From assembly GCF_001545095.1 (NCBI RefSeq), contig NZ_CP013213.1, positions 450,001 through 482,000 of the forward strand: a stretch of DNA of 32,000 bases. The letters run 5' to 3'. The translations under genes were made by a program, and so were the position numbers. The DNA comes from Erysipelothrix larvae. Its GTDB lineage: Bacteria > Bacillota_I > Bacilli_A > Erysipelotrichales > Erysipelotrichaceae. Within the stretch, counting starts at the first letter, position 1. Each line of letters begins with the position of its first letter. This document shows positions 4,401 through 27,940 of the stretch, one piece after another. Below the pieces are notes generated by a model that saw only the letters and a list, made by a program, of their open reading frames with translations, was not told the DNA's origin and did not search any database.

Positions 4401-7400
4401 GCCAGACCTTGATGTAAAAAATGTACCGGTTCTAAAAAACGTTGCATTTATTAACAATAAAGATGTTGATACAACAATTCCTACAGGGGATAGTAGTATT
4501 ACAGATCTTAAAAAAGAAGTAAAAGATGCGAATGGTGATGGTTTTGCTCAACCAGGTGAAGAACTTTCTTACACAATTTCTGCGAAGAATACAGGTAAAG
4601 TTGAGAAGAAGGATCTGATAATCCAAGATGAGCTAACAGAAGTATTAAAATATGTTGAGGATACCTCAAATGTAAGTGTAACCTTGACAAATGGAACATC
4701 TGTTACAACACATAGCATTCAAGATCTTGTTAACGGTCTCAAAATGTCACTGGGCGCTGGGAATAGTGCAACGGTAACCTTCACCGTTAAGGTCAAAAGT
4801 AATCTTGATGTGAGCTCAGTTAGCAAGATTGAAAACATCGCAACAATCGACGGAACACAAGTTCCAGAAGAAATTCCAACAGGTAATAAAAACCTATCAA
4901 ATTCAAATAAAGCTGTAAGTGATGCAAATGGTAACGGTTATGCTGAACCAAATGAAGAACTTACATATGTAATTACCGTTGTCAATGATGGTGATGTTGC
5001 AGCGAAAGGAATTGTTGTACAAGATGAACTTACGGAAGTCTTACAACATGTGAATGATCCAAAAGCTTCAACTGTAACAATCGTTAATAATGGTGTGCCA
5101 TCCGATAAGACAGTCCAAGATCTTATAAATGGAATCACATTGGATGTAGATGCACATTCAACTGCAACCCTGACATTCAAAGTTACCGTTAAGGGTGACC
5201 TCGATGTGAGTCAAGTAAATATGATTCGAAACATCGCAGTGATTGATGGAACACCAACTCCAATAGAAATTCCAACAGGAGACAAAGATCTATCGACATC
5301 AACGAAGACTGTTCAAGACTCTGATGGCGATGGACTTGCAGCTCCACAAGAGGATCTACACTATACCTTGAGTGTAAACAATACAGGGAATGTAGAGGCG
5401 AAGGACGTTCTTGTTAAGGATGAACTTACGAATGTATTGAAATATGTTAACAACCCTCGTGGTTCAAACATTACAATCACAGCAAATGGTGTGTCTTCAA
5501 CGGCTACCGTTCAAGATCTCATCAATGGCATCACCTTAGATGTTGCTGCAAATTCAACAACAACCATTGAATTCACGGTCACAGTGGATCAAAACCTTGA
5601 TGTTGCAAATGTTCCTGTAATTGAAAATACAGCCGAAATTGGCAACATGGTTGTGAACGCTTCAATTAATACCGGTAAGAGCGATTTAGCACTTACAAAA
5701 GATGCAGTGGATGCAAACAATGATGGGTTTGTATCGCCAAGTGAAGATCTAACCTATACAATCACTGCAGTTAATAATGGTGATGTTGATGCGAAAGATG
5801 TCTTTGTAAAAGATACACTCTTCAACTTACTACCAAACATCAAAGATATTTCAATGATTGAAGTTGAACTTAACAATGGTGGTCAAATTACCAACATTCC
5901 ACTACAAAACTTAGTGGATGGATTCAACATTGACATTAAAGCGAAAGAAACCCTTGTTCTAACATTTACAGTTACTGCAATTGACACATTAGATGTGAAT
6001 GCAGTGCCTTACTTTGAAAACAAGGTAACATTCGATAACCAAGATGCAACCAAGACAATCCCAACAGGTGATTCAAGCTTGACTGCGTTTAATAAGGATG
6101 TTAAAGATGCAAACAATGATGGATTTGCTTCACCAGGTGAAACATTAACCTATACAATTAGTGTTAACAATTCAGGTGCGGTAACGAAGAAAGATGTCAT
6201 CATTCTAGACGAACTCACTGAAGTGTTACAACATGTTATGGATACTTCATCAACAACCGTAACACTCACCAATGGAACAAGTGTTTCAACACATACAATT
6301 ACTGAACTCGTGAATGGTATTAAATTTGACTTACAAGCAGGTGATACTGCAACCGTAACATTCAGTGTTAGCGTGAAATCAGACCTTGATGTAGATCTAG
6401 TAGATATGATTCGAAACATAGCAGTGATTGATGGAACATCAACTCCAAAAGAAATTCCAACAGGAGACAAAAATCTCTCAACATCAACGAAATCTGTAAC
6501 AGACGAAAATGGTGATGGTATTGCTGCTGCTTCTGAAGAACTCACCTATACACTTACCGCAATTAATACCGGTAAAGTTAAAGCGAAAGACATTGTAATA
6601 CAAGATGAGCTCAAAGACGTATTAAAACACGTTGACGATCCACGCGGATCCATCGTAGAAATCGATAACAATGGCACGAAGTCACAAGCTACAGTACAAG
6701 ACTTGATGAATGGTATCGTCTTTGATCTTGATGTTGGTGCGACAGCTACCTTCACATTCAAGGTGAAAGTAATTGCGACTTTGGATACTGGAAATGTTAA
6801 AGCAATCGCAAATACCGCAACCATTGATAAAGTTCCAGTGGATACAACCATCCCAACAGGGGCTGAATATATCGTTGCAACAAAACAAGTTGTTGATGCA
6901 AGCGGTGATGGCATTGCGTCTCCATCTGAAGTACTTACGTATACAATCTCTGTAATGAATCAGGGAACTACGCCATCAACTGAAAAGATCATCGATGAAT
7001 TAGTGGATGTCTTGAAATATGTTGAAGACCCACGAAATCAAACAGTAACAATCAAGGAAAACGGTGTAATTACCGGTCAAACTACAGTTCAAAACCTAAT
7101 CGATGGGTTTAACCTCACGATTGACCCAGGTGACCGTTATGATTATTCATTTGATGTAACGGTAAGAAGTGATCTTGATGTTAATAACGTATCTATGATT
7201 TCTAATACCGTATTTGTGTCAGGGGTACCTACAACTGCATCAATTCCAACGGGTGATGTTGACCTTTCAACATCAGACAAAGTGGTAAGTGATGCAAATG
7301 GTAATGGATATGCTGAAGCAAACGAAACACTTACCTATAAGATCATCGCTAAGAATACGGGTAAAGTGGATGCAAAAGGTATCGTTATCCAAGATGAACT

Positions 7401-10400
7401 GAAGGACGTATTGAATCATGTGAATGATCCAAAAGCAACGCCTATTCTAGTGGGTGTTAATAATATTGTGATGCCATCAGCGTATACAGTCCAAGATCTG
7501 ATCAATGGTATCACACTTGATGTTGATGCAGGATCAACTGTTGAACTTTACTTTGATGTAACAGTTATATCAACCTTGGATGTTTCTTTAGTTGACAAAA
7601 TTAAAAATACAGCAACAATCGGTAAAGAAGACGTGACTGTAATCATTCCAACTGCTGAAGGAAACCTTACAGATCTAGACAAGAAAGTTGTTGATGAAAA
7701 CCAAAATGGCTATGCAGAAAAAGGTGAAACACTTACCTATACAATTACTGCGAAAAACTCAGGAATCGTAACTGCGAAAGATGTCATGATTAAAGACGAA
7801 CTCACTGATGTGTTGCAACATGTAGAGGATACAAGTAATGTCACTGTAACACTTACAAACGGATCCGTTGTCACAACGCATTCGATTAGTGACCTCGTAA
7901 ATGGCATCATCTTCGATATAAATCCAAACGATACTGCGACAATTACTTTCACAGTTAAAGTTAAAGCAGATCTCGATGTTTCATTAGTAACAAAAATTGT
8001 GAACATCGCGACAATCAATAACGTACCAACTCCTTCAGAAATTCCAACAGGTGATGGTACACTCACAGATATCGATAAGACGGTTAAGGATGCAAATGGT
8101 AATGGCTTTGCTGAACCAGGCGAAGATTTAACCTATGAAATGAAAGTGACCAATTCAGGAGCGGTAACAGCAAATGACTTGGAAATCAAAGATGAGCTAT
8201 TGGATGTACTCAACCATATTGAAGATCCAAGCAATGTATCTGTAGTATTGACAAATGATACACATACATCAACCCATACAATTCAAGAACTGATTGCAGG
8301 AATTCACTTCAATCTTGACGCAGGTAAAACAGCAACTGTAACATTTACAGTACGTGTTAAATCAACACTCGATGTATCACTTGTTGACAATATTTTGAAT
8401 ACTGCAACAATTGGTGGCGTTGATGTCGATGAGAAGATTCCAACGGGTGATAAAGACCTTACAACATCAACCAAATCCGTAGACGATGCAAATCATGATG
8501 GAATTGCTTCACCAAATGAAGTTCTTACCTATACAATCACTGCTATCAATAGTGGAAAAGTTGAAGCGAAAGGCATCGTAATCCAAGATGAACTCATTGA
8601 AGTACTTAAACATGTTAACGATCCACGCGCATCAATCGTAGAAATCGATAACAATGGTACGAAGACTCAAGCAACCGTTCAAGACTTAATCAATGGTATT
8701 ACCATCGATCTTGCAGCAGGCGCTAACGCAACCTTTACATTCAAAGTAACCGTACTTGGAACACTAAATGTAGGTCTCGTGAAAGAAATTGCGAATAAAG
8801 CAACCGTTGATGGCGTTGAAGTTATTAAGACAATCCCAACCGGTGATACTGATCTCTTGATTGGTAAAACTGTTGTTGATGAAAACACAAACAGATTTGC
8901 AGAACCAGGAGAAAAACTTACATATACCATCTTTGCAACAAACAATGGTAAAGTGGAAGCGAAGAACTTCACGATTAAAGATGAACTTGCAGGCGTTTTA
9001 GGACATATTCAAAATCCAAATAATGTCTCTGTAACATTAACCGTTGGATCAACTACCTCAATTCATACACTTGCTGAACTCATGAATGGATTGACATTTG
9101 ATTTAGGTGCAAATGAAAGTGCATCCGTCGTATTTACCGTAACGTTGTTAGATACATTGGATGTAGAACAAGTACAATTTATCCTTAACACTGCAACAAT
9201 TGGTGGCACCGATGTCGAAGAGAAGATCCCAACCGGTGATAAAGACCTATCAACTTCATTCAAATCAGTGAGTGATGCAAATGGTAACAATACAGCTGAA
9301 CCAGGTGAAGAACTTACCTACACAATCACTGCAATTAATATCGGAAAAGTTGAAGCGAAAGGCATCGTAATCCAAGATAAACTCAGCGAAGTACTTAAAC
9401 ATGTTAACGATCCACGCGCATCAATCGTAGAAATCGATAACAATGGAACGAAAACACAAGCAACCGTGCAAGACTTAATCAATGGTATCACCATCGATCT
9501 TGCAGCAGGTGCAACTGCTACCTTCACATTCAAAGTAACCGTACTTGGAACCCTTGATGTAGATTTCGTGAAAGAAATTGCGAATAAAGCGACAATTGGT
9601 GGCGAGGATGTCGAAGAGAAGATCCCAACCGGTGATAAAGACCTATCAACTTCATTCAAATCAGTGAGTGATGCAAATGGTAACAATACAGCTGAACCAG
9701 GTGAAGAACTTACCTATACAATTCATGCTGTTAATACCGGAAAAGTTGAAGCCAAAGGCATCGTAATCCAAGATAAACTCAGCGAAGTACTTAAACATGT
9801 TAACGATCCACGCGCATCAATCGTAGAAATCGATAACAATGGTACGAAGACACAAGCAACCGTGCAAGACTTAATCAATGGTATTACCATCGATCTTGCA
9901 GCAGGCGCAACTGCTACCTTTACATTCAAGGTAACCGTACTTGGAACCCTTGATGTAGATTTCGTGAAAGAAATTGCGAATAAAGCGACAATTGGTGGCG
10001 AGGATGTCGAAGAGAAGATCCCAACCGGTGATAAAGACCTATCAACTTCATTCAAATCAGTGAGTGATGCAAATGGTAACAATCAAGCTGAACCAGGTGA
10101 AGAACTTACCTATACAATTCATGCAATTAATACCGGAAAAGTTGAAGCCAAAGGCATCGTAATCCAAGATAAACTCAGCGAAGTACTTAAACATGTTAAC
10201 GATCCACGCGCATCAATCGTAGAAATCGATAACAATGGTACGAAGATACAAGCAACCGTGCAAGACTTAATCAATGGTATCACCATCGATCTTGCAGCAG
10301 GCGCAACTGCTACCTTCACATTCAAAGTAACCGTACTTGGAACCCTTGATGTAGATTTCGTGAAAGAAATTGCGAATAAAGCGACAATTGGTGGCGAGGA

Positions 10401-13317
10401 TGTCGAAGAGAAGATTCCAACCGGTGATAAAGACCTATCAACTTCATTCAAATCAGTGAGTGATGCGAATGGTAACAATCAAGCTGAACCAGGTGAAGAA
10501 CTTACCTATACAATTCATGCAATTAATACCGGAAAAGTTGAAGCGAAAGGCATTGTAATCCAAGATAAACTCATTGAAGTACTCAAACATGTTAACGATC
10601 CACGCGCATCAATCGTAGAAATCGATAACAATGGTACGAAGACACAAGCAACTGTTCAGGACTTAATCAATGGTATTACCATCGATCTTGCAGCAGGTGC
10701 AACTGCTACCTTCACATTCAAAGTAACCGTACTTGGAACCCTTGATGTAGATTTCGTAAAAGAAATTGCGAATAAAGCAACAATTGGTGGCACCGATGTT
10801 GATGAGAAGATCCCAACCGGTGATAAAGACCTATCAACTTCATTCAAATCAGTGAGTGATGCAAATGGTAACAATCAAGCAGAACCAGGTGAAGAACTTA
10901 CCTATACAATTCATGCAATTAATACCGGAAAAGTTGAAGCGAAAGGCATTGTAATCCAAGATAAACTCAGCGAAGTACTTAAACATGTTAACGATCCACG
11001 CGCATCAGTCGTAGAAATCGATAACAATGGTACGAAGACACAAGCAACTGTTCAAGACTTAATCAATGGTATCACCATCGATCTTGCAGCAGGCGCAACT
11101 GCTACCTTTACATTCAAGGTAACCGTACTTGGAACCCTTGATGTAGATTTCGTGAAAGAAATTGCGAATCAAGCAACAATTGGTGGCATTGATGTCGATG
11201 AGAAAATCCCAACTGGTAATACAGACCTTTCAACATCATACAAATCAGTATCTGATGCAAATGGTAACAATAAAGCAGAACCAGGTGAAGAACTTACCTA
11301 TACAATTCATGCAATTAATACCGGAAAAGTTGAAGCGAAAGGCATTGTAATCCAAGATAAACTCATTGAAGTACTCAAACATGTTAACGATCCACGCGCA
11401 TCAATCGTAGAAATCGATAACAATGGTACGAAGACACAAGCAACTGTTCAAGACTTAATCAATGGTATTACCATCGATCTTGCAGCAGGCGCAACTGCAA
11501 CCTTCACATTCAAAGTAACTGTCATTGATACACTTAATGTAAATACAGTGAAAGAAATTGCGAATAAAGCAACAATTGGTGGCATTGATGTTGATGAGAA
11601 GATTCCAACTGGTAATAAAGATCTTTCAACATCATACAAATCAGTGAGTGATGCAAATGGTGATGGTCTGGTTCAACCAGGTGAAGAACTTACCTATACC
11701 ATCCATGCAATCAATACTGGAAACGTTACTGCTAAAGGTGTATTGGTACAAGATGAACTCATCGACGTATTGAAACACGTTGATGATCCACGTAACAATA
11801 CATTAACACTCGATAACAATGGAACAATTTCTGTTCTCAAAGTTCAAGACTTGATGAATGGCGTAACGCTTGATATTGCTCAAGGCGGATATGCAACATT
11901 GACCTTTAAGGTTAAAGTTCTTAGCACCCTTGATGTGAAATCAGTGTCTGAAGTTGCGAATACCGCAACCATTGATGGAGACGATCACAAGATCATTATC
12001 CCAACAGGCGATGCAATCTTAGACTCAAGTAAGAGTGTTCAAGATGATAACCGTGATGGTTATGCATCACCAGGTGAGAAGATTACTTACCAATTGACTT
12101 CAAAGAACACTGGAACTGCGAAAGCAATCGGTGTTGAATTCAAGGATCAAATGGAAGACTTGTTGAAATATACATCAGTCAAACCAACAGATCAAGTAAC
12201 CGTAACAAATGGTGGCGTGGTAACATTCATCACAATTCAAGACTTGATTAACGGAATTAACGTTGACATTAATGAAAATGAGACTGTAACACTTGTGTTT
12301 GAAACACAAATCCTCAGTGATCTTGATGTCGATGCCGTGACGAAGGTTGTAAATAAAGCGACAATTGGTAGTGAAGAGAAGATTGTGGAAATCCCAACAA
12401 CCTCAAACACTGTAACTTCATACAAAGAAGTGAAAGATGCAAGCGGAGATGGCTATGCATCACCAGGCGAAGCACTCAATTACAAACTATCGATTAAGAA
12501 TAACGGTAAAACCTCAATGAGTGATGTATTTGTACAAGATAAGATGGAAACACTTCTTAGCTACATCAAACCAGTCTCAGGTGATACAGTAACCATCAAC
12601 AATAACGGAACCCTAAGTTCAGTATCAATCGATCAACTGATCAAAGGACTCTATGTGGATATTGCACCAGAAGCATTGGTTGAAATCACATTCACTGTGG
12701 TTATCATCGAAAATCTAAATACAACAGATGTTAAAGAAATATCGAATGTTGCGACACTTGGTGGCAAAACAGTCACTGAGAAGATCCCAACCGCAGATCC
12801 AAATCTAAACACATCGAAGAAAGTATCCGATGCAAACGGAAATAACGTTGCAGATAAAGGTGAAGTACTCTCCTATACAATCTCTGCAACAAACACAAGT
12901 AGTGTCGATGCTTATGGCGTACTCTTCTATGATTCACTTGTGGATGTATTACCATATGTAAACAACCCAAGTGATAATAAAGTAACCATTAACAATGCTG
13001 GCACAATCACTGAAAAGAAAGTCAGTGATCTACAACAAGGATTCTCAGTCGATCTCAAATCGAATGAAACCGTAAATGTTAGCTTTGAAGTAACAGTTAA
13101 GGAAGATATCAATGCGAAAGCAGGCGAAGTCATCCGAAATACAGCTACTGTTGGTAAATACGCGCCTACAATCGAAATACCATTGTTCCGCTCACCTGAC
13201 CTACCAAAAACAGGTCTTAAGGAACATGTCATGATGCTCGAGAAATCTCTTGTAATCATCGGAACTGCATTACTCGCAATATCGATTATCGTGAAACGGA
13301 AAGAAGAACTAGAATAA
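1..13317 (+). CDS. Giant cell-wall-anchored surface protein, 5'-partial (RCC1-like blades, about 27 DUF11-type repeats, LPXTG sorting signal)
   Basis: Frame 1 is open from base 1 (STGAVWSWGYNADGNSGFG... precedes the Met at 85 with no stop), so the real start is upstream of the window. The frame runs uninterrupted to TAA at 13315-13317. C-terminus is LPKTG, a hydrophobic stretch, then KRKEELE. Confidence 0.93.
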   Translation, partial: STGAVWSWGYNADGNSGFGPDVPAYAGGMKRIPYFVDNNINVIQIDSAYHTSYALDDQGNMYAWGNGTQGQIGNGANTGTNPTPTRVNINKKITKMYAGHGEITNSVLALDVDGDIWAWGYNPGGRIGVSGPAYSNTPKVIQVPGGVKFKDIAVGSSAFLAISTDGELYSWGNDTHGALGRGTTAGTVTTPTLVPRPAGMEKVKQISICYSMVVALDEKNQVWQWGALYGRGTATGHVDNTSTPIQLTISAAEISDYGYTPIPTKVFAGESVSYFVDQYGRPWAWGDGRYFGFGREGGYEDANSQLVKEAEQWPKVIGDGDTQIYDRRDKLPMYLSDPANPSGVSRNTYGGYSGINALHPTIYDEKYMLKDQNGEILDINGTILKYQSSNGSGRVRGFYYKVDASGTITNEVGLPATDPEESIWIDLALKDIPSVVSITTSRSSYTLLDKDGNIYKWGNDGSGSIAWGWDYDPKYDQNGSLERGLYDRYSYEVIYMRGAPTVDPIDLEIEKPTSKIYLTGAATDKDTIEIKATLPASYTSNSMNIIITPQLNYMKYVIIPYDESNPDFNVKNIDVDTFNALYAKSAYKSGTLVDTPIKADTAEQVVTKTVDVTENSRVIVMIEDVAYGRKLNTVASYIATNFYTPTDIFQTGLGDKEDGTFEVLYAKTQDQVDKADTPYDNVDLVGIPLDAKGQVINNPTFGYDGVKITAIKPLPNNEDIYWNLKATEVNPLDIILNDVKYMNNREYIHEFFYERNMDNWAYITYEGVDVDTNQPVPGFKMDVDNPELVKKYIEIARTAPTITDYEMVGYYINDGTTLYDLDSSNQAVFTPDKDTKITFVYGQPKFSGNKAVSDANGDGFASPGETLTYVLTAKNDSNFNAKNVVIQDEFKELLNHINDPRGNALVMDVDGVKTNLTVENLMNGITTDIKANGTVTFTFSVTVKSTLDTNAVDKLENTATIKDTPITVDIPTGVAILSGLKEVTDTDGDKIASPGEAIEYKISVSNNGTATASDVLIQDTLASVLGYVDAPYANQVVIDDNGSKTYATVQDLINGLYVDVKAGQTVTVTFKVTLLSTLDVKAVTSIDNSVKINDVPYDASIPTGKANLVSSKTVTDADLDGFASPGEVLSYLIKITNDGSVAATNVEVKDTLDTLISQIKSTNVTVSIKVGNSVTVTPLSELQKGFNIDIPANTTAEISFNVTLIDTLDVDNVKFVENKATINGQPVEEKIPTGKSNLIIDKVVKDANNDGFASPNEKLNYTITVQNSGDVAAKNVQITDKLAGVEPYIKNASSVIVRVSNGLTTQDTSLSDLQAGLTLNIAAKETVTIEFTVELISNLDVKNVTAIENVVTVDGTDKKVVIPTGGEDVVASKSVVDSDGDGFASPGERIYYRIEIVNNGSVKATDIVINDLLSEIKNYVVAPESEALLIEVNGSQSNANVQALMNGMSVDIEPNGMVVLTFGLTVKPDLDVKNVPVLKNVAFINNKDVDTTIPTGDSSITDLKKEVKDANGDGFAQPGEELSYTISAKNTGKVEKKDLIIQDELTEVLKYVEDTSNVSVTLTNGTSVTTHSIQDLVNGLKMSLGAGNSATVTFTVKVKSNLDVSSVSKIENIATIDGTQVPEEIPTGNKNLSNSNKAVSDANGNGYAEPNEELTYVITVVNDGDVAAKGIVVQDELTEVLQHVNDPKASTVTIVNNGVPSDKTVQDLINGITLDVDAHSTATLTFKVTVKGDLDVSQVNMIRNIAVIDGTPTPIEIPTGDKDLSTSTKTVQDSDGDGLAAPQEDLHYTLSVNNTGNVEAKDVLVKDELTNVLKYVNNPRGSNITITANGVSSTATVQDLINGITLDVAANSTTTIEFTVTVDQNLDVANVPVIENTAEIGNMVVNASINTGKSDLALTKDAVDANNDGFVSPSEDLTYTITAVNNGDVDAKDVFVKDTLFNLLPNIKDISMIEVELNNGGQITNIPLQNLVDGFNIDIKAKETLVLTFTVTAIDTLDVNAVPYFENKVTFDNQDATKTIPTGDSSLTAFNKDVKDANNDGFASPGETLTYTISVNNSGAVTKKDVIILDELTEVLQHVMDTSSTTVTLTNGTSVSTHTITELVNGIKFDLQAGDTATVTFSVSVKSDLDVDLVDMIRNIAVIDGTSTPKEIPTGDKNLSTSTKSVTDENGDGIAAASEELTYTLTAINTGKVKAKDIVIQDELKDVLKHVDDPRGSIVEIDNNGTKSQATVQDLMNGIVFDLDVGATATFTFKVKVIATLDTGNVKAIANTATIDKVPVDTTIPTGAEYIVATKQVVDASGDGIASPSEVLTYTISVMNQGTTPSTEKIIDELVDVLKYVEDPRNQTVTIKENGVITGQTTVQNLIDGFNLTIDPGDRYDYSFDVTVRSDLDVNNVSMISNTVFVSGVPTTASIPTGDVDLSTSDKVVSDANGNGYAEANETLTYKIIAKNTGKVDAKGIVIQDELKDVLNHVNDPKATPILVGVNNIVMPSAYTVQDLINGITLDVDAGSTVELYFDVTVISTLDVSLVDKIKNTATIGKEDVTVIIPTAEGNLTDLDKKVVDENQNGYAEKGETLTYTITAKNSGIVTAKDVMIKDELTDVLQHVEDTSNVTVTLTNGSVVTTHSISDLVNGIIFDINPNDTATITFTVKVKADLDVSLVTKIVNIATINNVPTPSEIPTGDGTLTDIDKTVKDANGNGFAEPGEDLTYEMKVTNSGAVTANDLEIKDELLDVLNHIEDPSNVSVVLTNDTHTSTHTIQELIAGIHFNLDAGKTATVTFTVRVKSTLDVSLVDNILNTATIGGVDVDEKIPTGDKDLTTSTKSVDDANHDGIASPNEVLTYTITAINSGKVEAKGIVIQDELIEVLKHVNDPRASIVEIDNNGTKTQATVQDLINGITIDLAAGANATFTFKVTVLGTLNVGLVKEIANKATVDGVEVIKTIPTGDTDLLIGKTVVDENTNRFAEPGEKLTYTIFATNNGKVEAKNFTIKDELAGVLGHIQNPNNVSVTLTVGSTTSIHTLAELMNGLTFDLGANESASVVFTVTLLDTLDVEQVQFILNTATIGGTDVEEKIPTGDKDLSTSFKSVSDANGNNTAEPGEELTYTITAINIGKVEAKGIVIQDKLSEVLKHVNDPRASIVEIDNNGTKTQATVQDLINGITIDLAAGATATFTFKVTVLGTLDVDFVKEIANKATIGGEDVEEKIPTGDKDLSTSFKSVSDANGNNTAEPGEELTYTIHAVNTGKVEAKGIVIQDKLSEVLKHVNDPRASIVEIDNNGTKTQATVQDLINGITIDLAAGATATFTFKVTVLGTLDVDFVKEIANKATIGGEDVEEKIPTGDKDLSTSFKSVSDANGNNQAEPGEELTYTIHAINTGKVEAKGIVIQDKLSEVLKHVNDPRASIVEIDNNGTKIQATVQDLINGITIDLAAGATATFTFKVTVLGTLDVDFVKEIANKATIGGEDVEEKIPTGDKDLSTSFKSVSDANGNNQAEPGEELTYTIHAINTGKVEAKGIVIQDKLIEVLKHVNDPRASIVEIDNNGTKTQATVQDLINGITIDLAAGATATFTFKVTVLGTLDVDFVKEIANKATIGGTDVDEKIPTGDKDLSTSFKSVSDANGNNQAEPGEELTYTIHAINTGKVEAKGIVIQDKLSEVLKHVNDPRASVVEIDNNGTKTQATVQDLINGITIDLAAGATATFTFKVTVLGTLDVDFVKEIANQATIGGIDVDEKIPTGNTDLSTSYKSVSDANGNNKAEPGEELTYTIHAINTGKVEAKGIVIQDKLIEVLKHVNDPRASIVEIDNNGTKTQATVQDLINGITIDLAAGATATFTFKVTVIDTLNVNTVKEIANKATIGGIDVDEKIPTGNKDLSTSYKSVSDANGDGLVQPGEELTYTIHAINTGNVTAKGVLVQDELIDVLKHVDDPRNNTLTLDNNGTISVLKVQDLMNGVTLDIAQGGYATLTFKVKVLSTLDVKSVSEVANTATIDGDDHKIIIPTGDAILDSSKSVQDDNRDGYASPGEKITYQLTSKNTGTAKAIGVEFKDQMEDLLKYTSVKPTDQVTVTNGGVVTFITIQDLINGINVDINENETVTLVFETQILSDLDVDAVTKVVNKATIGSEEKIVEIPTTSNTVTSYKEVKDASGDGYASPGEALNYKLSIKNNGKTSMSDVFVQDKMETLLSYIKPVSGDTVTINNNGTLSSVSIDQLIKGLYVDIAPEALVEITFTVVIIENLNTTDVKEISNVATLGGKTVTEKIPTADPNLNTSKKVSDANGNNVADKGEVLSYTISATNTSSVDAYGVLFYDSLVDVLPYVNNPSDNKVTINNAGTITEKKVSDLQQGFSVDLKSNETVNVSFEVTVKEDINAKAGEVIRNTATVGKYAPTIEIPLFRSPDLPKTGLKEHVMMLEKSLVIIGTALLAISIIVKRKEELE
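1491..2529 (+). other. Unassigned middle region of the giant protein (about 345 aa); its C-terminal part is possibly MucBP-like
   Basis: No repeat periodicity. The last ~80 aa (ITYEGVDVDTNQPV...ITDYEMVGYYINDG...DKDTKITFVYG) resemble the MucBP pattern ending in T-hydrophobic-x-F-V-Y. This is a weak, by-eye call. Confidence 0.3.
2530..13185 (+). repeat. Array of about 27 tandem 396-bp (132-aa) DUF11-type 'conserved repeat domain' units, coding
   Basis: Counted from the recurring junction motif IPTG-x3-L-x3-K-x-V-x-D and the core D-x-[ND]-x-[DN]-G-[FYI]-A-x-P-x-E-x-L-x-Y. Repeat 1 starts at PKFSGNKAVSDANGDGFASPGE (2530). The last repeat ends near VIRNTATVGKYAPTIEIP. Confidence 0.85.
9223..11598 (+). 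repeat. Six near-identical 396-bp tandem units inside the DUF11 array
   Basis: Unit starts (AAG ATC CCA ACC GGT = KIPTG) fall at 9223, 9619, 10015, 10411, 10807 and 11203, spaced exactly 396 bp. I count about 8 substitutions between the 9619 and 10015 units. The unit at 8431 shares the same core. The identical antisense ORFs ending at 9686, 10082 and 10478 reflect the same periodicity. Confidence 0.9.
13201..13317 (+). other. Sortase sorting signal (LPKTG, TM helix, basic tail)
   Basis: cta cca aaa aca ggt = LPKTG at 13201-13215, followed by LVIIGTALLAISIIV and KRKEELE-stop. Confidence 0.9.
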
Positions 13318-13326
13318 GTAATTGAA

Positions 13327-13363
13327 GAGGTGTGATCTCAATAATTTGAGATCCCCTCTTGTC
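13327..13363 (+). terminator. Putative intrinsic terminator after the giant gene
   Basis: Perfect 8-bp stem gatctcaa/ttgagatc with loop taat, extended by partial gagg../..cctc pairing, then the T-rich ttgtctt. The T-tract is weak. Confidence 0.5.
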
Positions 13364-13379
13364 TTATTAGAGGTGAAGA

Positions 13380-13799
13380 ATGAAGAAGAAAAACAAAGTT
13401 TTAATAGGTGGCATCGCTGGGCTTGTGGTTGTACTTGCGGTATTAATCGTTGTACTCATCGACCCATTTAAGAGTGAAGAAGAGAAAGTCACCAACAAGA
13501 TTCAAAGTATTGGGGGAGTATTCTACGAAGATTTCTTCTATCCTCAACAAGTTCTAGGATTAAGCGAGGCAGAGATTGCACAGAAATTGACAGCATTTTC
13601 TACAGAAGGGATTTCAGTAAGTCTTGAAGATGTGAATAAAGTGATGGAAATCAGTGACAAAGTCAGTGACCCAATAAAAGAAGTCACCCGTGACGATGCT
13701 AAACTGGTTTGCAATCCATCAACAACCATCATCATTACACCAAAGGAACCATTCAGTAAAACAGATTATGACATTAGAGTCTCTTTAGACTGTAAATAA
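13380..13799 (+). CDS. Small single-pass membrane protein, copy 1 (partner of a bactofilin); family not recognised
   Basis: RBS agaggtgaag lies just upstream of the ATG. N-terminus is MKKKNK followed by a hydrophobic helix (VLIGGIAGLVVVLAVLIVVLI), then a ~105-aa soluble domain with two Cys (LVCNP, LDCK). It is a paralog of 14956..15378. Confidence 0.85.
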   Translation: MKKKNKVLIGGIAGLVVVLAVLIVVLIDPFKSEEEKVTNKIQSIGGVFYEDFFYPQQVLGLSEAEIAQKLTAFSTEGISVSLEDVNKVMEISDKVSDPIKEVTRDDAKLVCNPSTTIIITPKEPFSKTDYDIRVSLDCK

Positions 13800-13822
13800 A
13801 CAATTTAGACAGGAAGGCAAAC

Positions 13823-14464
13823 ATGGAAAATAACAAAGGATTTAACCTCGATGAAAATTACTCGGTAATTTCATCAGGTGTTACCATTCGTGGTAACATT
13901 GAGTCAAAAGACTCACTCAGTATCGCAGGCATTGTCGAAGGCGATGTGTACTGTGAGAAAGAAATCGAACTCGCACAAAATTGCACGATTCATGGTGATA
14001 TTAAATCAGCATCCATCGCAATTAATGGTGCAGAAATTCGCGGAAATGTCAGCGTCGAAGATCGTTTCGTTCTCGACAAAGACTCAATTATTGTTGGTTC
14101 ACTCAGCGCAAACAGCGCGCGTATCAATGGTCGCATTGATGGCCCTGTTAAAGTAAGTGGTGAAGTATCAATTGCTTCAACTGCAGTTGTGATTGGGGAC
14201 TTAATGTCTTCATCATTAGTTGTTGAAAATGGCGCTCAATTAAAAGGGAGCTATACAGTGTATGTAGAAGAAGTACATGAAGAAGCAGATGCTTACATGC
14301 AAAGCAATGTTGATGAAATAGTAATTGAACACTATTACCAAGCACATGATTTCACGATGCCAGAGGAAACACAACCTGTTGAGGCAGTAAGTGAAGCATC
14401 TGTGAACCAAGAATCATATGCTCAAGAAGATCAAAATACAAATAACGAACAATTCGAAGGATAG
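13823..14464 (+). CDS. Bactofilin (polymer-forming cytoskeletal protein, DUF583 family), copy 1
   Basis: RBS aggaagg. The core SVISSGVTIRGNIESKDSLSIAGIVEGDV...STAVVIGDLMSSSLVVENGAQLKGS shows the repeating beta-helix pattern and the C-terminal signature typical of bactofilins. The C-terminal tail is acidic. No signal peptide or obvious N-terminal membrane-targeting peptide. Confidence 0.85.
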   Translation: MENNKGFNLDENYSVISSGVTIRGNIESKDSLSIAGIVEGDVYCEKEIELAQNCTIHGDIKSASIAINGAEIRGNVSVEDRFVLDKDSIIVGSLSANSARINGRIDGPVKVSGEVSIASTAVVIGDLMSSSLVVENGAQLKGSYTVYVEEVHEEADAYMQSNVDEIVIEHYYQAHDFTMPEETQPVEAVSEASVNQESYAQEDQNTNNEQFEG

Positions 14465-14516
14465 ACAACAGGACATTGTGCCCACCCACTACTTGATCTC
14501 TTTCAACGCAATGTCC

Positions 14517-14560
14517 AAGACCAAAAAGGCCGTTTTTAATGCGGTCTTTTTTTGCTTTTT
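14517..14560 (+). terminator. Possible terminator after bactofilin copy 1
   Basis: agacc...ggtct with internal aaaaaggccgttttt pairing, followed by ctttttttgctttttt. The stem is imperfect. Confidence 0.4.
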
Positions 14561-14955
14561 TCTCTTTTATATCATGAAATAAATCTATAAACATGCGATA
14601 AATGAGATGCTTTATAAATAAGCGACGGCATCAAAAGTGCCCCTAAACATTGACTTAAAAAGAGGTTGATAAAGATTAGTTTAATACCAAAAAATAAAAT
14701 TTCAAACCTATGAAACGAACCCTAGTGTTTTTAGGGGTATAAAAGCGTTAATCTAAAAAGAGATAAGATATGTTATGGACACTAATATATTGAATCAATG
14801 ATATGCGTGGGAGTTCATTGAATCTTGTTTAAAACCTGATGATAAACAAAGAAGACATCCATAAAACAAGACTCAATGATCACAAAATCACGCTTAGGAA
14901 ACAAAGAAAGGGACTCAATAAAAAGATACTTTTTATTACAATAAGGATTTAAAGA

Positions 14956-15378
14956 ATGAAAAAGAAAATACGGTTACTATGGGGGCTATTAGCTGCACTT
15001 ATACTTGCGATTGCAATTGCGATTGTACTAGTACTCAATCCTATCAAAAGCGATGAAGCGAAAGTCACAGATAAGGTTAAAACGATTGGAAGTACATTCT
15101 ATGAAGATTTCTTCTATCCTCAACAAGTGTTAGGGCTCAGTGAGGCAGAAATCGCACAAAAGCTTACAGTATTCTCAGATGATGGAATTTCAATCACACT
15201 TGAAAGCATTGAAAAGGTATTGGAAATTAAAGACAAAGTTGGTGACGCAATAAGTGAGGTTACAAGCGAATCAGCAAAACTTGTATGTAATCCACAAACA
15301 ACAAAAGTCATCATTATTCCAAAAGAACCATTTACGAAGCATGATTATGACGTAAAGGTTGAACTTGATTGTAAATAA
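14956..15378 (+). CDS. Small single-pass membrane protein, copy 2 (paralog of 13380..13799)
   Basis: Same architecture as copy 1. My hand alignment gives 89 identical of ~140 positions, including an invariant 24-residue block FYEDFFYPQQVLGLSEAEIAQKLT and both Cys. Confidence 0.85.
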   Translation: MKKKIRLLWGLLAALILAIAIAIVLVLNPIKSDEAKVTDKVKTIGSTFYEDFFYPQQVLGLSEAEIAQKLTVFSDDGISITLESIEKVLEIKDKVGDAISEVTSESAKLVCNPQTTKVIIIPKEPFTKHDYDVKVELDCK

Positions 15379-15396
15379 AAAAAGGGAGGAAGTATT

Positions 15397-15969
15397 ATGG
15401 ACCATAAAAACTATGCATTGGATGAGAGTTACTCAGTAATCTCAAGCGGTGTCACGATCAAAGGGAATATCGAATCAACAGATTCACTCAGTATTGCCGG
15501 GATTGTCCAAGGTGATGTAATGTGTCACAAAGAAATTGAACTCGCACAGGATTGTTGTATCAGTGGAGACATTAAGTCCACATCGATTGCGATTAACGGT
15601 GCCAAAATTGAAGGGAACGTGACAGTAGAAGACCGTTTTGTGTTGGATAAAGACTCAATTATCATCGGTTCTTTGAGTGCAAGCAGTGCCCATATTAACG
15701 GTCAAATTGAAGGACCTGTAAAGGTGAGCGGCGAAGTATCCATCGCTTCAACTGCAGTAGTAGTCGGTGATTTAGTCGCATCCTCATTGGTTGTTGAAAA
15801 TGGTGCGAAGCTAAAAGGAAGTTATACCGTATTTAGTGAAGAAGTAAACGAACCAACCATGCACAATGAAGAAACAGTCATTGAACGTTACTATCAAACA
15901 CAAGAAGGATTGGAACAAGATTCAAAAAATGATGACTTTGTCATTACTACAGATGAACTTGATGCCTAA
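15397..15969 (+). CDS. Bactofilin, copy 2
   Basis: RBS agggagga. About 80-85% identical to copy 1 over the beta-helical core by hand alignment. The C-terminal acidic tail is unrelated in sequence and shorter. Confidence 0.85.
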   Translation: MDHKNYALDESYSVISSGVTIKGNIESTDSLSIAGIVQGDVMCHKEIELAQDCCISGDIKSTSIAINGAKIEGNVTVEDRFVLDKDSIIIGSLSASSAHINGQIEGPVKVSGEVSIASTAVVVGDLVASSLVVENGAKLKGSYTVFSEEVNEPTMHNEETVIERYYQTQEGLEQDSKNDDFVITTDELDA

Positions 15970-15974
15970 ATATG

Positions 15975-16011
15975 AAAAGCAACCCACACGGCGCGTGAGT
16001 TGCTTTTTTTT
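15975..16011. terminator. Intrinsic terminator between the convergent bactofilin and mltG genes
   Basis: aaaagcaacccacacg gcg cgtgagttgctttttttt: GC-rich imperfect stem flanked by an A-run and a T-run, so it could act on both strands. Confidence 0.75.
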
Positions 16012-16067
16012 AATGGTGTATTTTTGATTAATCTTACGCGATACAAACGATTCACACAGCATGATTT

Positions 16068-17120
16068 TTATCGATGAGGATCGACATACTTTTCAACATT
16101 ACGCTGATGTTCTTCATAAGTTTTCGCAAAATAGATTTCACCAGTCGTTACATCCGCCACAAAGTACAAATAATCTGTATCATCAGGGTTAAGGACTGCT
16201 TCAATCGCGAGTGATACTGGGTTCATAACCGGTCCTGGAGGAAGCCCTAAATGAATGTACGTATTGAATGGTGAGTCAATATCAATGTTTCGCTCACATT
16301 CTTGCCATGACTCATAGGTTTGCAATGCATAACAAATTGTAACACTCGATCCCAAGGTCATATTAATATCCAAGCGATTAATGAATACATTTGCGATTGT
16401 TCGCATGGACGCTTCTGTATTTCCTTCATAATTCACAATCGAAGCTAAGGTTAAGAGCTCATGGACACTAAAGCGGGATTGTTCAATCTCATCCGCAAAG
16501 GAATCCAAGACCTTTGCCATATTATTTAAAATTGTATGGGTAACGTCATCAATTGTCGTAATGCGTTTAAACTCATAGGTATCTGGATATAAATATCCTT
16601 CAAGCTTCACCTTCAAATCATCAAGGGTTAAGACTTCATTGAGGAATGGATAAGTTTCCACAAGGGATTCAATATAATCCGCATCATTCCAAGTGGCTAA
16701 GATCTCATCAGCTTCTAAGTTAGTTTCTTCACCAAGCAGTGCTGCGAAGTCTTTAGCCCAGCCCCCTGAGGGTAAAGTAATCGTCACAACGTTTGGTTGT
16801 GCATTACGCTGGTCATCAAAATGCTTAATAATCTGGGTGGTTGTCCATGAAGCATCAATTTCGTACACGCCAACAAAGAGCGTCTTATCCAACTTGAACC
16901 TCAAGATAAATTGCATGAATGAAGCAGAACGAATCACGCCTTCTTCTTCTAAGTGACGACTCACACTGGTATATGTATCTTCTGATGTAACGTTAATTGT
17001 ATGAATCTGTGATTCAGAAGTAACCCCGCGATTCATGGAATAGAATGTGATAAAAACAACTGCAAGTATTGCTACCCCAATCCCAATAAACCAATACTTT
17101 TTCTTAAGGATAAAATCCAT
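16068..17120 (-). CDS. mltG: Endolytic murein transglycosylase MltG (YceG-like)
   Basis: N-terminal TM anchor (KKYWFIGIGVAILAVVFITFY) and the YceG-type C-terminal pattern (EGYLYPDTYEF, ASIVNYEG, VFINRL..., NTYIHLGLPPGPVMNPV). I set the start at the ATG at 17118-17120, which follows RBS aaggaagg, rather than the ORF-track start at 17309. Confidence 0.85.
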   Translation of the reverse strand: MDFILKKKYWFIGIGVAILAVVFITFYSMNRGVTSESQIHTINVTSEDTYTSVSRHLEEEGVIRSASFMQFILRFKLDKTLFVGVYEIDASWTTTQIIKHFDDQRNAQPNVVTITLPSGGWAKDFAALLGEETNLEADEILATWNDADYIESLVETYPFLNEVLTLDDLKVKLEGYLYPDTYEFKRITTIDDVTHTILNNMAKVLDSFADEIEQSRFSVHELLTLASIVNYEGNTEASMRTIANVFINRLDINMTLGSSVTICYALQTYESWQECERNIDIDSPFNTYIHLGLPPGPVMNPVSLAIEAVLNPDDTDYLYFVADVTTGEIYFAKTYEEHQRNVEKYVDPHR

Positions 17121-17551
17121 CCGGTAAACCTTCCTTACTCTAATGAAAACATAAAACACGAATAATATGGTCCTGTATAAAATACCATTGCTTATATTAT
17201 ACAGTGTTATGTGACGAAATGTTAGACTTAACGTCCAAGAAATTGGGTGTGGTAGGCACTCTATTACAGGAAATGTCATCATCGTGGTTATGCAAACATA
17301 ATACCCCAAAACCGAGTAATATCACCAAAATCCAACAAAATATGCACTATTTACTGTGATTTCAACACAAAAGGAGAAGAAATCACACTTAGAATCATTC
17401 AACTTAGTTCAATAATATATGAATACCCAATAAATGGTCATACCTATAATTATGGGATAACTTACAAATTTTAAGGATATATTTTATCCAGCTGGCTCAA
17501 GAAATTCACAGGGTTTGCTTGGTAAACTCATGAAATGAATCGGTCTTGTTC

Positions 17552-17580
17552 TTGTGAATTGACGCTATCTATGCTATAGT
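17552..17580 (+). promoter_or_regulatory. Candidate sigma-A promoter for the antiporter leader
   Basis: ttgtga (17552-17557), a 17-nt spacer, then tatagt (17575-17580), with a TG-n extended -10 at 17572-17574. Confidence 0.45.
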
Positions 17581-17698
17581 ACACAAAGGGAATGAAGTTC
17601 TCCCTGTTCTGATTAAGACAAACCGCATATGCTGATGACTTCTATACTTTTTTAAGTATAGGGTTGTCAGCATTTTTTATTTGAAGGAGAAGAAACGT
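17581..17698 (+). promoter_or_regulatory. Structured 5' leader with an intrinsic terminator (attenuator or riboswitch candidate) upstream of the antiporter
   Basis: Small hairpin aggga-atgaagttc-tccct at 17587-17605. A ~16-bp stem (with GU pairs and one bulge) gctgatgacttctatac / gtatagggttgtcagc at 17631-17671 is followed by atttttta, immediately before the RBS gaaggagaag. Confidence 0.45.
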
Positions 17699-18901
17699 AT
17701 GTTACAAAGCATCGGGTTAATATTTATCATTGGGTTTATCATGCAAGAAGTCTTTCAAAAGGTCAAGATTCCCAGTCTTGTAGGATTCTTGTGGTCAGGC
17801 ATATTATTAGGGCCATTTGGGTTTAATATCCTCGATGAGTCCCTCCTTAATATCTCAGGGGACTTAAGAGAAGTTGCACTGCTCATCATTTTGACACAAG
17901 CAGGGCTATCCTTGGAATTATCAGACTTTAAGAAAATGGGGCATAAAGCCATTTTCATGTCCTTTGTTCCTGCTTGTTTTGAAATCTTTGCGACGTTTAT
18001 GGTTTCGCAATATCTATTTGGTCTCAGTCCAGTTGATGCACTCTTGTTGGGTGCCATCATTGCCTCTGCATCCCCAGCAGTCATTGTACCCCGCATGCTA
18101 AAACTGATGAAAGAAGGCTATGGTATCAAGAAAGGAATCCCACAACTAATCTTAACCGGAGACTCTGTGGACGATGTTTTCAACATTGTGGTATTCTCCA
18201 GCGTACTTGGACTACAAGGCGGAGGAAAACTAACATTCTCACAATTTTTACTGATTCCTGTTTCTATATTAATAGGGGTGGCAATCGGAGTGGGCCTGGG
18301 ATTGATTGTTTCAAAGCTTTTTGAAAGGATAAAACACCGTTTCGAATTTAAAACCTTGTTGCTCTTAAGCGTTGGATTTTTACTCATGGGTGTAGAATCT
18401 TATGTGGAATCATTCTTCCCATTCTCAGCGCTTATCTGTGTGATCGCAATGGGTGTTACCTTATTAAATATGCAACCAAAGGATGCAGTCAGTGTATCCA
18501 ACCAATTATCTAAATTATGGATCGGGGCACAAGTCTTGTTATTTGCACTCGTTGGCGCAAGTGTAAACATCAACTATATAACCTTTGCAGGAATATCCGC
18601 AATCCTCATGATGATTGTTGTTTTATGTATTCGAGGCGTAGGGATCTTATTGAGTCTATCAGGCAGTGATTTTACACTAAAAGAAAAACTGTTTTGTGTT
18701 TTATCAGGCATCCCAAAAGCCACAGTTCAAGCGGCAATTGGAGGGATTCCACTTGCGATGGGGATTGCCAGTGGTGAACTGATCCTCGCAATCTCTGTAA
18801 TCGCGATTTTATTCACTGCACCAATTGGTGCAATGCTTTTGGATACTTTGTATCCAAAATTATTAACAGATGATCGAAACACGGATAGAATCATTTCATA
18901 A
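17699..18901 (+). CDS. Cation:proton antiporter (Na+/H+ exchanger family, CPA-type)
   Basis: Polytopic hydrophobic protein of roughly 11-12 predicted helices. The N-terminal region (...GFLWSGILLGPFGFNIL...EVALLIILTQAGLSLE) is typical of the Na_H_Exchanger family. I prefer the ATG at 17699 (RBS gaaggaga 9 nt upstream) over the TTG at 17681. Confidence 0.75.
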   Translation: MLQSIGLIFIIGFIMQEVFQKVKIPSLVGFLWSGILLGPFGFNILDESLLNISGDLREVALLIILTQAGLSLELSDFKKMGHKAIFMSFVPACFEIFATFMVSQYLFGLSPVDALLLGAIIASASPAVIVPRMLKLMKEGYGIKKGIPQLILTGDSVDDVFNIVVFSSVLGLQGGGKLTFSQFLLIPVSILIGVAIGVGLGLIVSKLFERIKHRFEFKTLLLLSVGFLLMGVESYVESFFPFSALICVIAMGVTLLNMQPKDAVSVSNQLSKLWIGAQVLLFALVGASVNINYITFAGISAILMMIVVLCIRGVGILLSLSGSDFTLKEKLFCVLSGIPKATVQAAIGGIPLAMGIASGELILAISVIAILFTAPIGAMLLDTLYPKLLTDDRNTDRIIS

Positions 18902-19018: not shown

Positions 19019-20077
19019 ATGACAAAAGATTTTTCGTTTGATGCAATTCTAGAAGAACTTGATAAGCGACATTTAAAATATAATCATAGTGGTGAGATGG
19101 TTTTTGATGATGATGTATATGTATCAATCTGGGACATTTCATCTGGAATTTTTCGATATCATGTTCACTATCTAAACTATGAATCAGAACATATCGAAAT
19201 TGAATATAAAAAAATTCAGACTTTACTCCACGATTCATTAAAATGGAATCAATTCGGATTTACACAGGATTTCAAGATGTTTCCTAATCGAACACCGTAT
19301 CATAAAAATAGACACACTGAACTCAATTTTGTAATGCGTGGCTCCTTGGATTTCAAAGTTCAAGGTGAAATCGTGAGTGTATCTGAAGGTGATATGTTAG
19401 GGATTAACACTATGACATATCACAGCGAACACGAACTGGTAGAGCCATTATATGTCGTCTTTATAGGTTTTAATGATACTAAGTATGTAGCGTCCATCCT
19501 TGATTATGTTGAAAATCTGCAGTTTCGAAAATTTATGAATCGATCCCTGTCAAAATCTACAATGGAAGCAGAATATGTTTTATATCACGACATTGACAAA
19601 TTTGACGAAACCAAACAACTCTTAGAATTAATCATTCAAGAAATCGACGCGAAGAAACCAGGGTATAAAAGTATTCTTAGAGGACTATTTATCCGATTTT
19701 TTACCCATATGAATTCCCTGCATGGAAAGGATACGTCACAACCGGCAAAAGGATATCGCTACCTTGTATTTGAAGAGATGAGTCATTATATAAATGAACA
19801 CTACGCAACAATTTCACTCCAACAACTTGTGGATTTATATGGCTACACGAAAGACTATTTTAACCGACTGGTAAAGGAAATGACAGGAAAGACATTTATC
19901 CAGTATGTCCAAGACATTCGACTTGAGAAAGCGTGTGAATATCTTGCGACAACCGAATTACGTGTTGTTGAGATTGCGGATAAAACAGGATATTCAAATA
20001 TCTCATATTTCTACAAAATATTTAAAAATCGAAAACAAATTACCCCCGATGAATATCGAAAACGCTATAAAATATAG
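19019..20077 (+). CDS. AraC-family transcriptional regulator (cupin-like N-terminal domain plus C-terminal double HTH)
   Basis: RBS gaggaga. The C-terminus (HYATISLQQLVDLYGYTKDYFNRLVKEMTGKTFIQYVQDIRLEKACEYLATTELRVVEIADKTGYSNISYFYKIFKNRKQITPDEYRK) is a canonical AraC/XylS HTH domain. Confidence 0.9.
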   Translation: MTKDFSFDAILEELDKRHLKYNHSGEMVFDDDVYVSIWDISSGIFRYHVHYLNYESEHIEIEYKKIQTLLHDSLKWNQFGFTQDFKMFPNRTPYHKNRHTELNFVMRGSLDFKVQGEIVSVSEGDMLGINTMTYHSEHELVEPLYVVFIGFNDTKYVASILDYVENLQFRKFMNRSLSKSTMEAEYVLYHDIDKFDETKQLLELIIQEIDAKKPGYKSILRGLFIRFFTHMNSLHGKDTSQPAKGYRYLVFEEMSHYINEHYATISLQQLVDLYGYTKDYFNRLVKEMTGKTFIQYVQDIRLEKACEYLATTELRVVEIADKTGYSNISYFYKIFKNRKQITPDEYRKRYKI

Positions 20078-27812: not shown

Positions 27813-27940
27813 TTTCGTGTTTTGGATGAAGCTACCTTTATTCTTGAACACTTGCTGTGTTAAATGGGTATCTGTTCAGAATAAACTAGTTCTAAAGTCA
27901 AGGATATAATTTAGACAGAAGAGAATATTTTCTATGCCAA

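Follow-up and report, generated by a model that had tools for sequence, protein, structure and literature searches.

We have analyzed a stretch of 32,000 nucleotides (nt) from the 2.495-Mb chromosomal contig of Erysipelothrix larvae (the window), in which four open reading frames (ORFs) on the forward strand form two consecutive pairs, each comprising a gene for a small membrane protein (A) followed by a gene for a bactofilin (B). The pairs are the product of an ancient tandem duplication of a two-gene operon in the E. larvae lineage. The original prediction, made from the sequence of the window, had taken the pairing to be conserved and concluded from this that the two proteins work together. 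The reading that we favor, to which we give a probability of roughly 0.55, is that of an ancient duplication of the operon within E. larvae in which A and B act on opposite sides of the membrane, with a linkage that is specific to the lineage and no obligate A-B complex.

Age of the duplicated operon

The first module consists of A1 (13380–13799, + strand), a protein of 139 amino acids (aa) identical to AOC36_02110, and B1 (13823–14464, +), a 213-aa bactofilin identical to AOC36_02115. In the second module A2 (14956–15378, +; 140 aa, identical to AOC36_02120) is a paralog of A1 with a like architecture, and B2 (15397–15969, +; 190 aa, identical to AOC36_02125) is a bactofilin paralogous to B1. 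The genes within each pair are separated by just 23 nt in module 1 and 18 nt in module 2, with no terminator in either gap, and a GGAGG-like ribosome-binding site of the Shine-Dalgarno type precedes every one of the four starts. The two pairs, at 13380–14464 and 14956–15969, thus have the coordinates, the spacing and the individual ribosome-binding sites that had been predicted for them.

The two copies are strongly diverged. A1 and A2 are 64% identical (E 7e-60), and B1 and B2 are 74% identical over 174 aa (E 1e-88), rising to 83.5% in the bactofilin core (residues 8–146); these values agree with the estimates made at the outset, of about 64% for the membrane proteins and 80–85% for the bactofilin cores. 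Comparison at the codon level gave a proportion of differing synonymous sites pS = 0.74 for A and 0.78 for B, i.e., the synonymous sites are saturated. The nonsynonymous divergence dN is 0.27 for A and 0.22 for B, with dN/dS ~0.09 for A. Saturation of the synonymous sites together with this low ratio indicates an old duplication held under purifying selection, and the view that the pairs are old, maintained and no artefact of assembly is thus upheld. A nucleotide similarity of 72% is detectable only between 13470–14275 and 15046–15846, within the coding regions, and the upstream regions and spacers of the two modules share no similarity. The 24-aa block FYEDFFYPQQVLGLSEAEIAQKLT (residues 48–71) is identical in A1 and A2, as had been noted, yet 13 of its 72 nucleotides differ, which argues for purifying selection on the protein and not for gene conversion. 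We therefore give almost no credence to the ideas that the duplication is recent, that the copies are an artefact of assembly, or that they result from gene conversion. Their nucleotide identity is only 66–72%, the synonymous sites are saturated, the flanks and intergenic regions are unrelated, and the 24-aa block is identical only as protein; no support for any of the three was found.

The two bactofilins and the small membrane protein

Both B proteins match the Pfam family Bactofilin (PF04519, DUF583) far above its cut-off of 27.9 bits, B1 with 93.6 bits and B2 with 96.4 bits (E ~1e-27), the core of B1 extending over approximately residues 12–146. They are also detectably related to bactofilins of solved structure, with E 1.5e-4 for BacA (2N3D) and E 2.4e-4 for the Thermus thermophilus protein TtBac (6RIA). 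No transmembrane or hydrophobic segment is present in B1 or B2, and B1 also has no signal peptide. The sequence MFSKKKK is the consensus of an N-terminal membrane-targeting sequence that prevails among bactofilins, those of Bacillota included, and an F2E change in BacA abolishes membrane binding (PMC12448750). B1 begins with MENNKGF and B2 with MDHKNYA; in both, residue 2 is acidic, and neither position 2 nor position 3 is hydrophobic. A targeting sequence of the MFSKKKK type, which is typical of the family and not strictly defining, is thus missing from both, in agreement with the original prediction. By sequence, B1 and B2 add two members with unusual N-termini to the bactofilin family.

The C-terminal tails had been described as acidic and unrelated. 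Acidic they are, with 67 aa and a net charge of −18 in B1, and 45 aa and −12 in B2. They are not wholly unrelated, however, for the motif (I/T)VIE(H/R)YYQ is common to the otherwise divergent tails (14270–14340 and 15830–15895), occurring as IVIEHYYQ in B1 and TVIERYYQ in B2. It is absent from P0005, which is the only other close bactofilin (38% identity) among 5.8 billion sequences. The motif is a candidate for a client-docking or self-regulatory peptide.

A1 begins with a stub MKKKNKV(L) carrying a charge of +4, followed by a single helix at residues 9–27 with a Kyte-Doolittle hydropathy of 3.2. By the positive-inside rule this places the N-terminus inside the cell, with ~7–8 residues in the cytoplasm and residues 29–139 outside. 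The ectodomain is predicted to be an α/β domain of ~110 residues (29–139 in A1), and the AlphaFold2 model of A is a confident one, with a predicted local distance difference test (pLDDT) score of 95. A pair of cysteines, Cys111 and Cys138 in A1 and 111 and 139 in A2, is invariant in the family. In the models Cys111 and Cys138 appear as isolated β-bridge residues, and the pair probably forms a disulfide. Between A1 and A2 the stub and transmembrane helix are 39% identical, compared with 70% for the ectodomain.

In a number of homologs (P0017, P0155, P0053, P0043 and the protein at locus L021) a lipoprotein signal replaces the transmembrane anchor, ending ...AVGC in P0017 and ...VVGC in P0155, ...LSGC in P0053 and ...VTGC in the L021 protein; P0017 and P0155 contain two tandem copies of the A domain. 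These lipoprotein-type homologs provide independent support for an extracytoplasmic location of the domain. The sequence features thus place the bulk of A, including the invariant 24-aa block, outside the membrane. With that block and the conserved domain on the outer side, neither could make contact with a cytoplasmic bactofilin.

The original prediction had not recognized the membrane partner, and had suggested a profile search with the 139-aa protein. We carried out an exhaustive hidden Markov model (HMM) search of 1.84 billion cluster representatives (clustered at 50% identity), which revealed a family of at least 354 representatives at E ≤ 1e-3, 83 of them at E ≤ 1e-10. Nearly all members are 125–210 aa long and match from end to end, and most come from uncultured gut and rumen Bacillota. 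In an alignment of 80 sequences the positions Y49, Y54, G77, C111, I119, P121, P124, Y130, L136 and C138 are near-invariant, giving the signature G-x-x-FYE-x-FYYP ... GIK ... C-[DN] ... I-x-PK-x-PY-x-x-x-DY ... L-x-C. A word-indexed homology search with A1 had found only A1 itself and its paralog, so that A might have passed for an orphan. P0006, which ranked second in the HMM search, is a false match that arises by summation over repeats. This PTS-rich protein of 2998 aa was hit at 13 places, where each repeat reaches ~16 bits (i-Evalue ~400), and it goes undetected by the profile made from the 80 aligned sequences. Contig scans, for which the back-translated pattern was narrow, gave one genome locus and six metagenome loci, and a scan of viral contigs and a phage tblastn found no relatives of A.

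No described family accounts for A. Pfam, NCBIfam, PHROGs and PADLOC gave only sub-threshold matches driven by the transmembrane segment (Oxidored_q3, DUF4179 and Mid2), and none of the 80 aligned members has a significant Pfam domain. The anti-sigma-factor-associated DUF4179 (PF13786) reached at best 21.7 bits against a cut-off of 30.1, in a match that spans the transmembrane region, and just 6 of the 80 members match it, weakly. A sequence-profile search of the PDB gave a designed coiled coil as its best match (E 0.014), and Foldseek searches of the PDB returned nothing significant, the best E being 0.55 when the full-length model served as query and 1.2 with the model of the ectodomain. Among the matches were chains of MarR/winged-helix proteins, P450s and pilins, with E ≥ 0.5 and TM-scores ≤ 0.26. 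A type IV pilin was considered on account of the N-terminal helix, the α/β head and the C-terminal Cys pair. A class III signal peptide has G at −1 and E at +5 of the mature hydrophobic helix. The N-termini of A1 and A2, MKKKNKVLIGGIAGLVV and MKKKIRLLWGLLAAL, do not contain the motif G-(F/M)-x-x-x-E and thus lack such a peptide; lipoprotein signals occur in some homologs, and pilin chains were matched by Foldseek only at E >2. By the criterion of sequence, A represents an unnamed and undescribed family of hundreds of clusters, and is no orphan.

Genomic linkage and the relation between the two proteins

Is the A gene linked to a bactofilin gene elsewhere? We have collected the neighborhoods of A homologs from metagenome contigs and metagenome-assembled genomes, mostly short, which gave 12 distinct contexts out of the at least 354 clusters. 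Bactofilins were sought in the precomputed Pfam annotation, by Pfam scans of unannotated neighbors, and with an HMM built from B1, B2 and P0005. Within 4–6 kb of the A homologs there was no bactofilin (PF04519) in any of the 12 contexts, either by annotation or by HMM, and among 204 A-family proteins no fusion to a bactofilin domain occurs. The converse result was obtained for P0005, whose neighborhood has no A-family gene and is formed by a gene of the homoserine O-succinyltransferase family (HTS, PF04204) and a 38-aa ORF. A literature search for surveys of bactofilin neighborhoods returned nothing relevant.

The two pairs in the window derive from a single segmental duplication that copied both genes, and therefore count as one observation of linkage. 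The A-B pairing is confined to E. larvae; it is a lineage-specific arrangement and not a conserved two-component system. The inference of a joint function from a conserved pairing is therefore not borne out. It had moreover been put forward on the understanding that it would fall if the homologs of A proved usually to be unlinked to bactofilins, and this is what the neighborhood analysis found.

The 38-aa ORF beside P0005 encodes a single-pass mini-protein, MLQLIVLIVIVIALDLAVKQIRKSARRKNIYETDEKKK, with a basic C-terminal tail. It lies ~80 nt 3′ of the P0005 gene (L001 1920–2036, and likewise in L002–L006). This protein, seen in one lineage only, could be a small membrane partner.

The genes that recur beside A homologs are of another kind. 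A gene for a large repeat-rich surface protein, in most cases Cadherin-like (PF12733), adjoins A in five or six of the 12 contexts. A follows two Cadherin-like genes in the context formed by L007 (A at 5935–6516), L021 (3926–4327) and L024 (591–1151; here a homologous partial ORF), and one such gene at L025 (4918–5550). At L027 (5001–5450) it follows three, and precedes a repeat protein of >1142 aa with Flg_new domains. At L009–L011 A lies before a 4155-aa giant of the Cadherin-like/ALK_LTK_GRD type (A at 2172–2630 in L009), and at L016 (5001–5429) it follows an Alg14/GT28 gene, and the second gene downstream encodes a Cadherin-like giant of >1500 aa. In four contexts A is co-directional with the large surface-protein gene and 47–90 nt downstream of it, a spacing seen behind Cadherin-like genes at L007, L021, L025 and L027. 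The A proteins at the surface-protein loci share 36–68% identity with one another, so that the arrangement has outlasted real divergence.

The remaining neighbors include envelope genes. At L008, L012–L014, L030 and L031 the A gene abuts a Zn_peptidase_2 gene at 0–1 nt, which suggests translational coupling, with PrsA convergent and LytR nearby; it lies between genes for a PPIase and a PedC-like thioredoxin at L015, after an HtrA-like protease gene at L026, and after a GT8 glycosyltransferase gene at L028. At L017, L019 and L020 A stands beside housekeeping or other genes. This arrangement with Zn_peptidase_2 (PF04298) occupies L008 4319–5426, L012 4322–5426, L030 4321–5423 and L031 368–1470; these loci represent one lineage, in which the convergent gene encodes a PrsA-like rotamase and the gene nearby belongs to the LytR_cpsA_psr family.

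In the window A1 has a position like that of the homologs that follow Cadherin-like genes, starting 62 nt after the gene for a giant surface adhesin (1–13317, +). This protein has RCC1-like repeats followed by ~20 DUF11/DUF7927/DUF7507 repeats and a C-terminal LPKTG signal. The ORF encodes 4410 aa from its first ATG and has no in-frame stop up to the left edge of the window; the protein is therefore longer than 4410 aa, with an N-terminus that lies outside the window. Its C-terminus DLPKTGLKEHVMMLEKSLVIIGTALLAISIIVKRKEELE has the LPKTG motif, a transmembrane segment and a basic tail, as expected for an LPXTG sortase substrate. In the distal part there are several almost identical repeats of ~130 aa. 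The A family may be a family of adhesin accessory proteins; the recurrent surface-protein neighbors provide a lead, although some of the contexts are perhaps phylogenetically linked.

On the reading that we favor, A would be a signal-anchored (N-in) protein displaying its Cys-paired ectodomain outside the cell, and would act as an extracytoplasmic accessory of surface-protein display or envelope maintenance. We infer an extracellular role because genes of the family elsewhere adjoin genes for large repeat-rich surface proteins or for envelope folding and biogenesis. The client in E. larvae would most plausibly be the giant LPKTG adhesin. B, devoid of the N-terminal membrane-targeting peptide common in bactofilins, would form a scaffold in the cytoplasm. 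B1 and B2 most likely co-assemble into a single one, as the analogy of BacA/B, BacE/F and BacNOP suggests, and their differing acidic tails could serve on it as sub-functionalized docking sites.

A number of points weigh against this reading. The order of A before B and the tight spacing of 23 and 18 nt have long been retained in both copies, and purifying selection on all four genes is expected of a functional pair also. Bactofilins without a membrane-targeting sequence need another route to the membrane, for which a bitopic protein encoded in the same operon is the obvious candidate. The Csd5-CcmA system provides a precedent for a bitopic recruiter (PMC9507126), and the Bacillus gene upstream of a bactofilin pair (yhbD, encoding BacR) specifies a bactofilin-binding protein (PMC13649987). 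The association with surface-protein genes is given by simple counts, and the sample of homolog contexts is small, drawn mostly from short metagenomic contigs, and several of the contexts are possibly related by phylogeny.

In an alternative scheme A is the dedicated membrane receptor of the bactofilin of its operon, an innovation of the E. larvae lineage that resembles Csd5. The Lys-rich stub and transmembrane helix would recruit the polymer to the membrane and the ectodomain would couple that site to a structure of the wall or surface, for example the adhesin or peptidoglycan, the duplication giving two specialized pairs. The operon arrangement has been kept in both copies despite the saturated synonymous divergence, the B proteins have an acidic residue 2 (ME.., MD..) where F2E costs BacA its membrane binding (PMC12448750), and there are precedents in Csd5-CcmA (PMC9507126) and in region C1 of PbpC (PMC12448750). 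P0005 is followed by its 38-aa single-pass protein, and small membrane partners are perhaps a recurring theme. We nevertheless consider such a receptor rather doubtful. The cytoplasmic part of A is merely ~7–8 residues of a generic MKKK-type signal anchor, and the stub and helix are the least conserved part of A1 and A2 (39%) though the bactofilin cores are 83% identical. In the A family a lipoprotein signal can stand in for the helix altogether, and the most conserved block, at residues 48–71, is extracellular. The absence of bactofilins from all 12 homolog contexts and of domain fusions stands against it also.

A fuller version, specific to Gram-positive bacteria, has bitopic A tethering bactofilin filaments through its helix and stub and its ectodomain engaging the wall or the LPKTG adhesin, such that the cytoskeleton positions the display of the adhesin and the two pairs mark two sites. 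This we regard as quite unlikely.

The opposite extreme is that A and B are functionally unrelated, a bactofilin gene having landed behind an A gene already linked to the adhesin, after which segmental duplication copied both and each gene was kept for its own separate reason. This accords with the contexts examined, in which the A and bactofilin families are not seen together outside the E. larvae genome, and with A1 being in the position typical of its family, directly behind a large surface-protein gene. It differs only in degree from the reading that we favor. Both pairs have nevertheless long been intact, and co-transcription across gaps of 18–23 nt that contain no terminator gives at least co-regulation; a purely passive association is improbable in our view.

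Surroundings of the modules and comparison with known systems

Each pair had been taken to be its own transcription unit, and this holds for module 2, whereas for module 1 there is reason to doubt it. The stop codon of the adhesin gene and the A1 ribosome-binding site are separated by a strong hairpin followed by a U-rich stretch (13325–13360, +; ~−19.5 kcal/mol, z −3.75), which is likely to be a terminator, perhaps a partial one, or an attenuator. Only ~20 nt separate it from the A1 ATG, leaving no space there for a promoter of module 1, and no promoter-like site was found on the + strand in 13200–13380. Module 1 is thus probably not an independent unit, but expressed by read-through of the adhesin transcript or from a promoter within the adhesin gene. 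It is closed by a hairpin resembling an intrinsic terminator, with a U-run (14523–14551, +). There follows an unusually long AT-rich non-coding spacer of 404 nt (14552–14955), presumably the site of the promoter and leader of module 2. It contains no credible ORF of ≥40 aa and does not resemble the sequence ahead of A1. A search of 13000–18000 with Rfam left the modules, and the 491 nt that separate B1 from A2, without a match. Hairpins upstream of A-family genes at other loci were considered as a common feature, with inconsistent results.

Downstream of B2 a hairpin flanked by A-runs and U-runs (15974–16008), plausibly a bidirectional terminator, separates the module from the convergent mltG gene. 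The surroundings that had been described, an LPXTG mega-protein upstream and MltG convergent downstream, are thus present, the latter as a gene at 16068–17309 (− strand) for an endolytic transglycosylase of the MltG/YceG type (PF02618, 241.6 bits; TIGR00247, 214.4 bits against a cut-off of 103.4). The suggestion that its adjacency hints at function fails, since a convergent housekeeping neighbor carries no weight. The mltG ORF as listed has a TTG start and an implausible N-terminal extension of 63 aa, and the YceG/TIGR00247 match and the transmembrane helix start only past an internal methionine (MDFILKKKYW...). From the sequence, this methionine, near 17120, is probably the true start.

A fluoride riboswitch (RF01734; 17579–17651, +) exceeds the Rfam gathering score of 34, at 44.6 bits (E 3e-10), and lies directly 5′ of a transporter gene of the Na_H_Exchanger family (17681–18901). 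A transporter gene downstream of a fluoride riboswitch is an arrangement that is already known. Beyond it an AraC-type regulator gene (19019–20077) is followed by two adjacent GH3 glycosidase genes (20193–22583 and 22596–25358, +), the second of which has a permuted order with the C-terminal domain before the N-terminal domain. Further downstream, the region 26679–30360 contains an Mbeg1-like gene (26679–27812), a DUF6431 gene (28281–28751) and an ISL3-family transposase gene (28885–30360). It may be a mobile insertion, because the GC content falls to 0.32 at 28001–29000.

As a whole, the finding is of a lineage-specific operon duplication of modest general importance. Were an A-B complex real, it would add to Csd5-CcmA a second, unrelated case in which a bactofilin is recruited by a bitopic protein, the first such case in a Gram-positive organism, and it would link a cytoskeletal scaffold to the display of surface proteins. 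The more solid result, which does not depend on the bactofilin question, is that A defines a family, one that may have a tie to giant adhesins. The A domain is compact and modeled with confidence, and its Cys pair is conserved; Pfam has no model for it, and no solved structure was detected. It could reasonably be proposed as a new domain family and be studied as an accessory factor of adhesins.

Among the closest known systems is Csd5-CcmA of Helicobacter pylori. Through its cytoplasmic N-terminal region Csd5 binds the bactofilin domain of CcmA, which cannot reach the envelope without Csd5 (PMC9507126). Like Csd5, A is a small bitopic N-in protein with its larger part outside, paired with a bactofilin, and a recruitment such as that of CcmA by Csd5 would fit a B protein that lacks a membrane-targeting sequence. 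However, the ectodomain of Csd5 is a peptidoglycan-binding SH3 domain, whereas A has no SH3 domain and no Pfam or Foldseek-PDB match. The A stub is only ~7–8 residues long, binding between A and B is hypothetical, and in other genomes the A family is not linked to bactofilins. With no SH3 domain and no conserved co-occurrence, A and B can at most be said to work like Csd5 and CcmA.

Sets of paralogous bactofilins are found in Caulobacter (BacA/BacB) and Myxococcus (BacNOP). In B. subtilis BacE and BacF are encoded in the yhbDEF operon, and BacR binds the bactofilins (PMC13649987). Like these, B1 and B2 are related paralogs encoded near one another with a conserved β-helical core and divergent tails; they differ in that the duplicated unit also has, ahead of the bactofilin gene, a gene for an extracytoplasmic protein, and in that they lie in separate copies of the operon. 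BacR is a cytoplasmic DNA-binding protein of the DUF4004 type, unrelated to A. The MFSKKKK-like motif prevalent in the bactofilins of Bacillota (PMC12448750) is missing from the N-termini of the B proteins. PbpC of Caulobacter is recruited by BacA through a short N-terminal cytoplasmic peptide, region C1, residues 2–13 (PMC12448750), and so resembles A, were A an anchor, in being a bitopic envelope protein with a very short peptide recruited by a bactofilin. PbpC has, however, a long cytoplasmic tail with C1 and a linker, whereas the ~7–8 residues of the A stub, generic and poorly conserved past MKKK, lead straight into the transmembrane helix.

A further comparison is with the small accessory genes found beside giant surface adhesins in Gram-positive bacteria, which represent a general pattern and not a named family. 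A1 at 62 nt behind its adhesin gene, and its homologs at 47–90 nt behind Cadherin-like genes, have the same disposition. No described accessory family matches A, and the class of adhesin differs, with DUF11 repeats and an LPXTG signal in E. larvae and Cadherin-like proteins with a C-terminal transmembrane segment at the other A loci.

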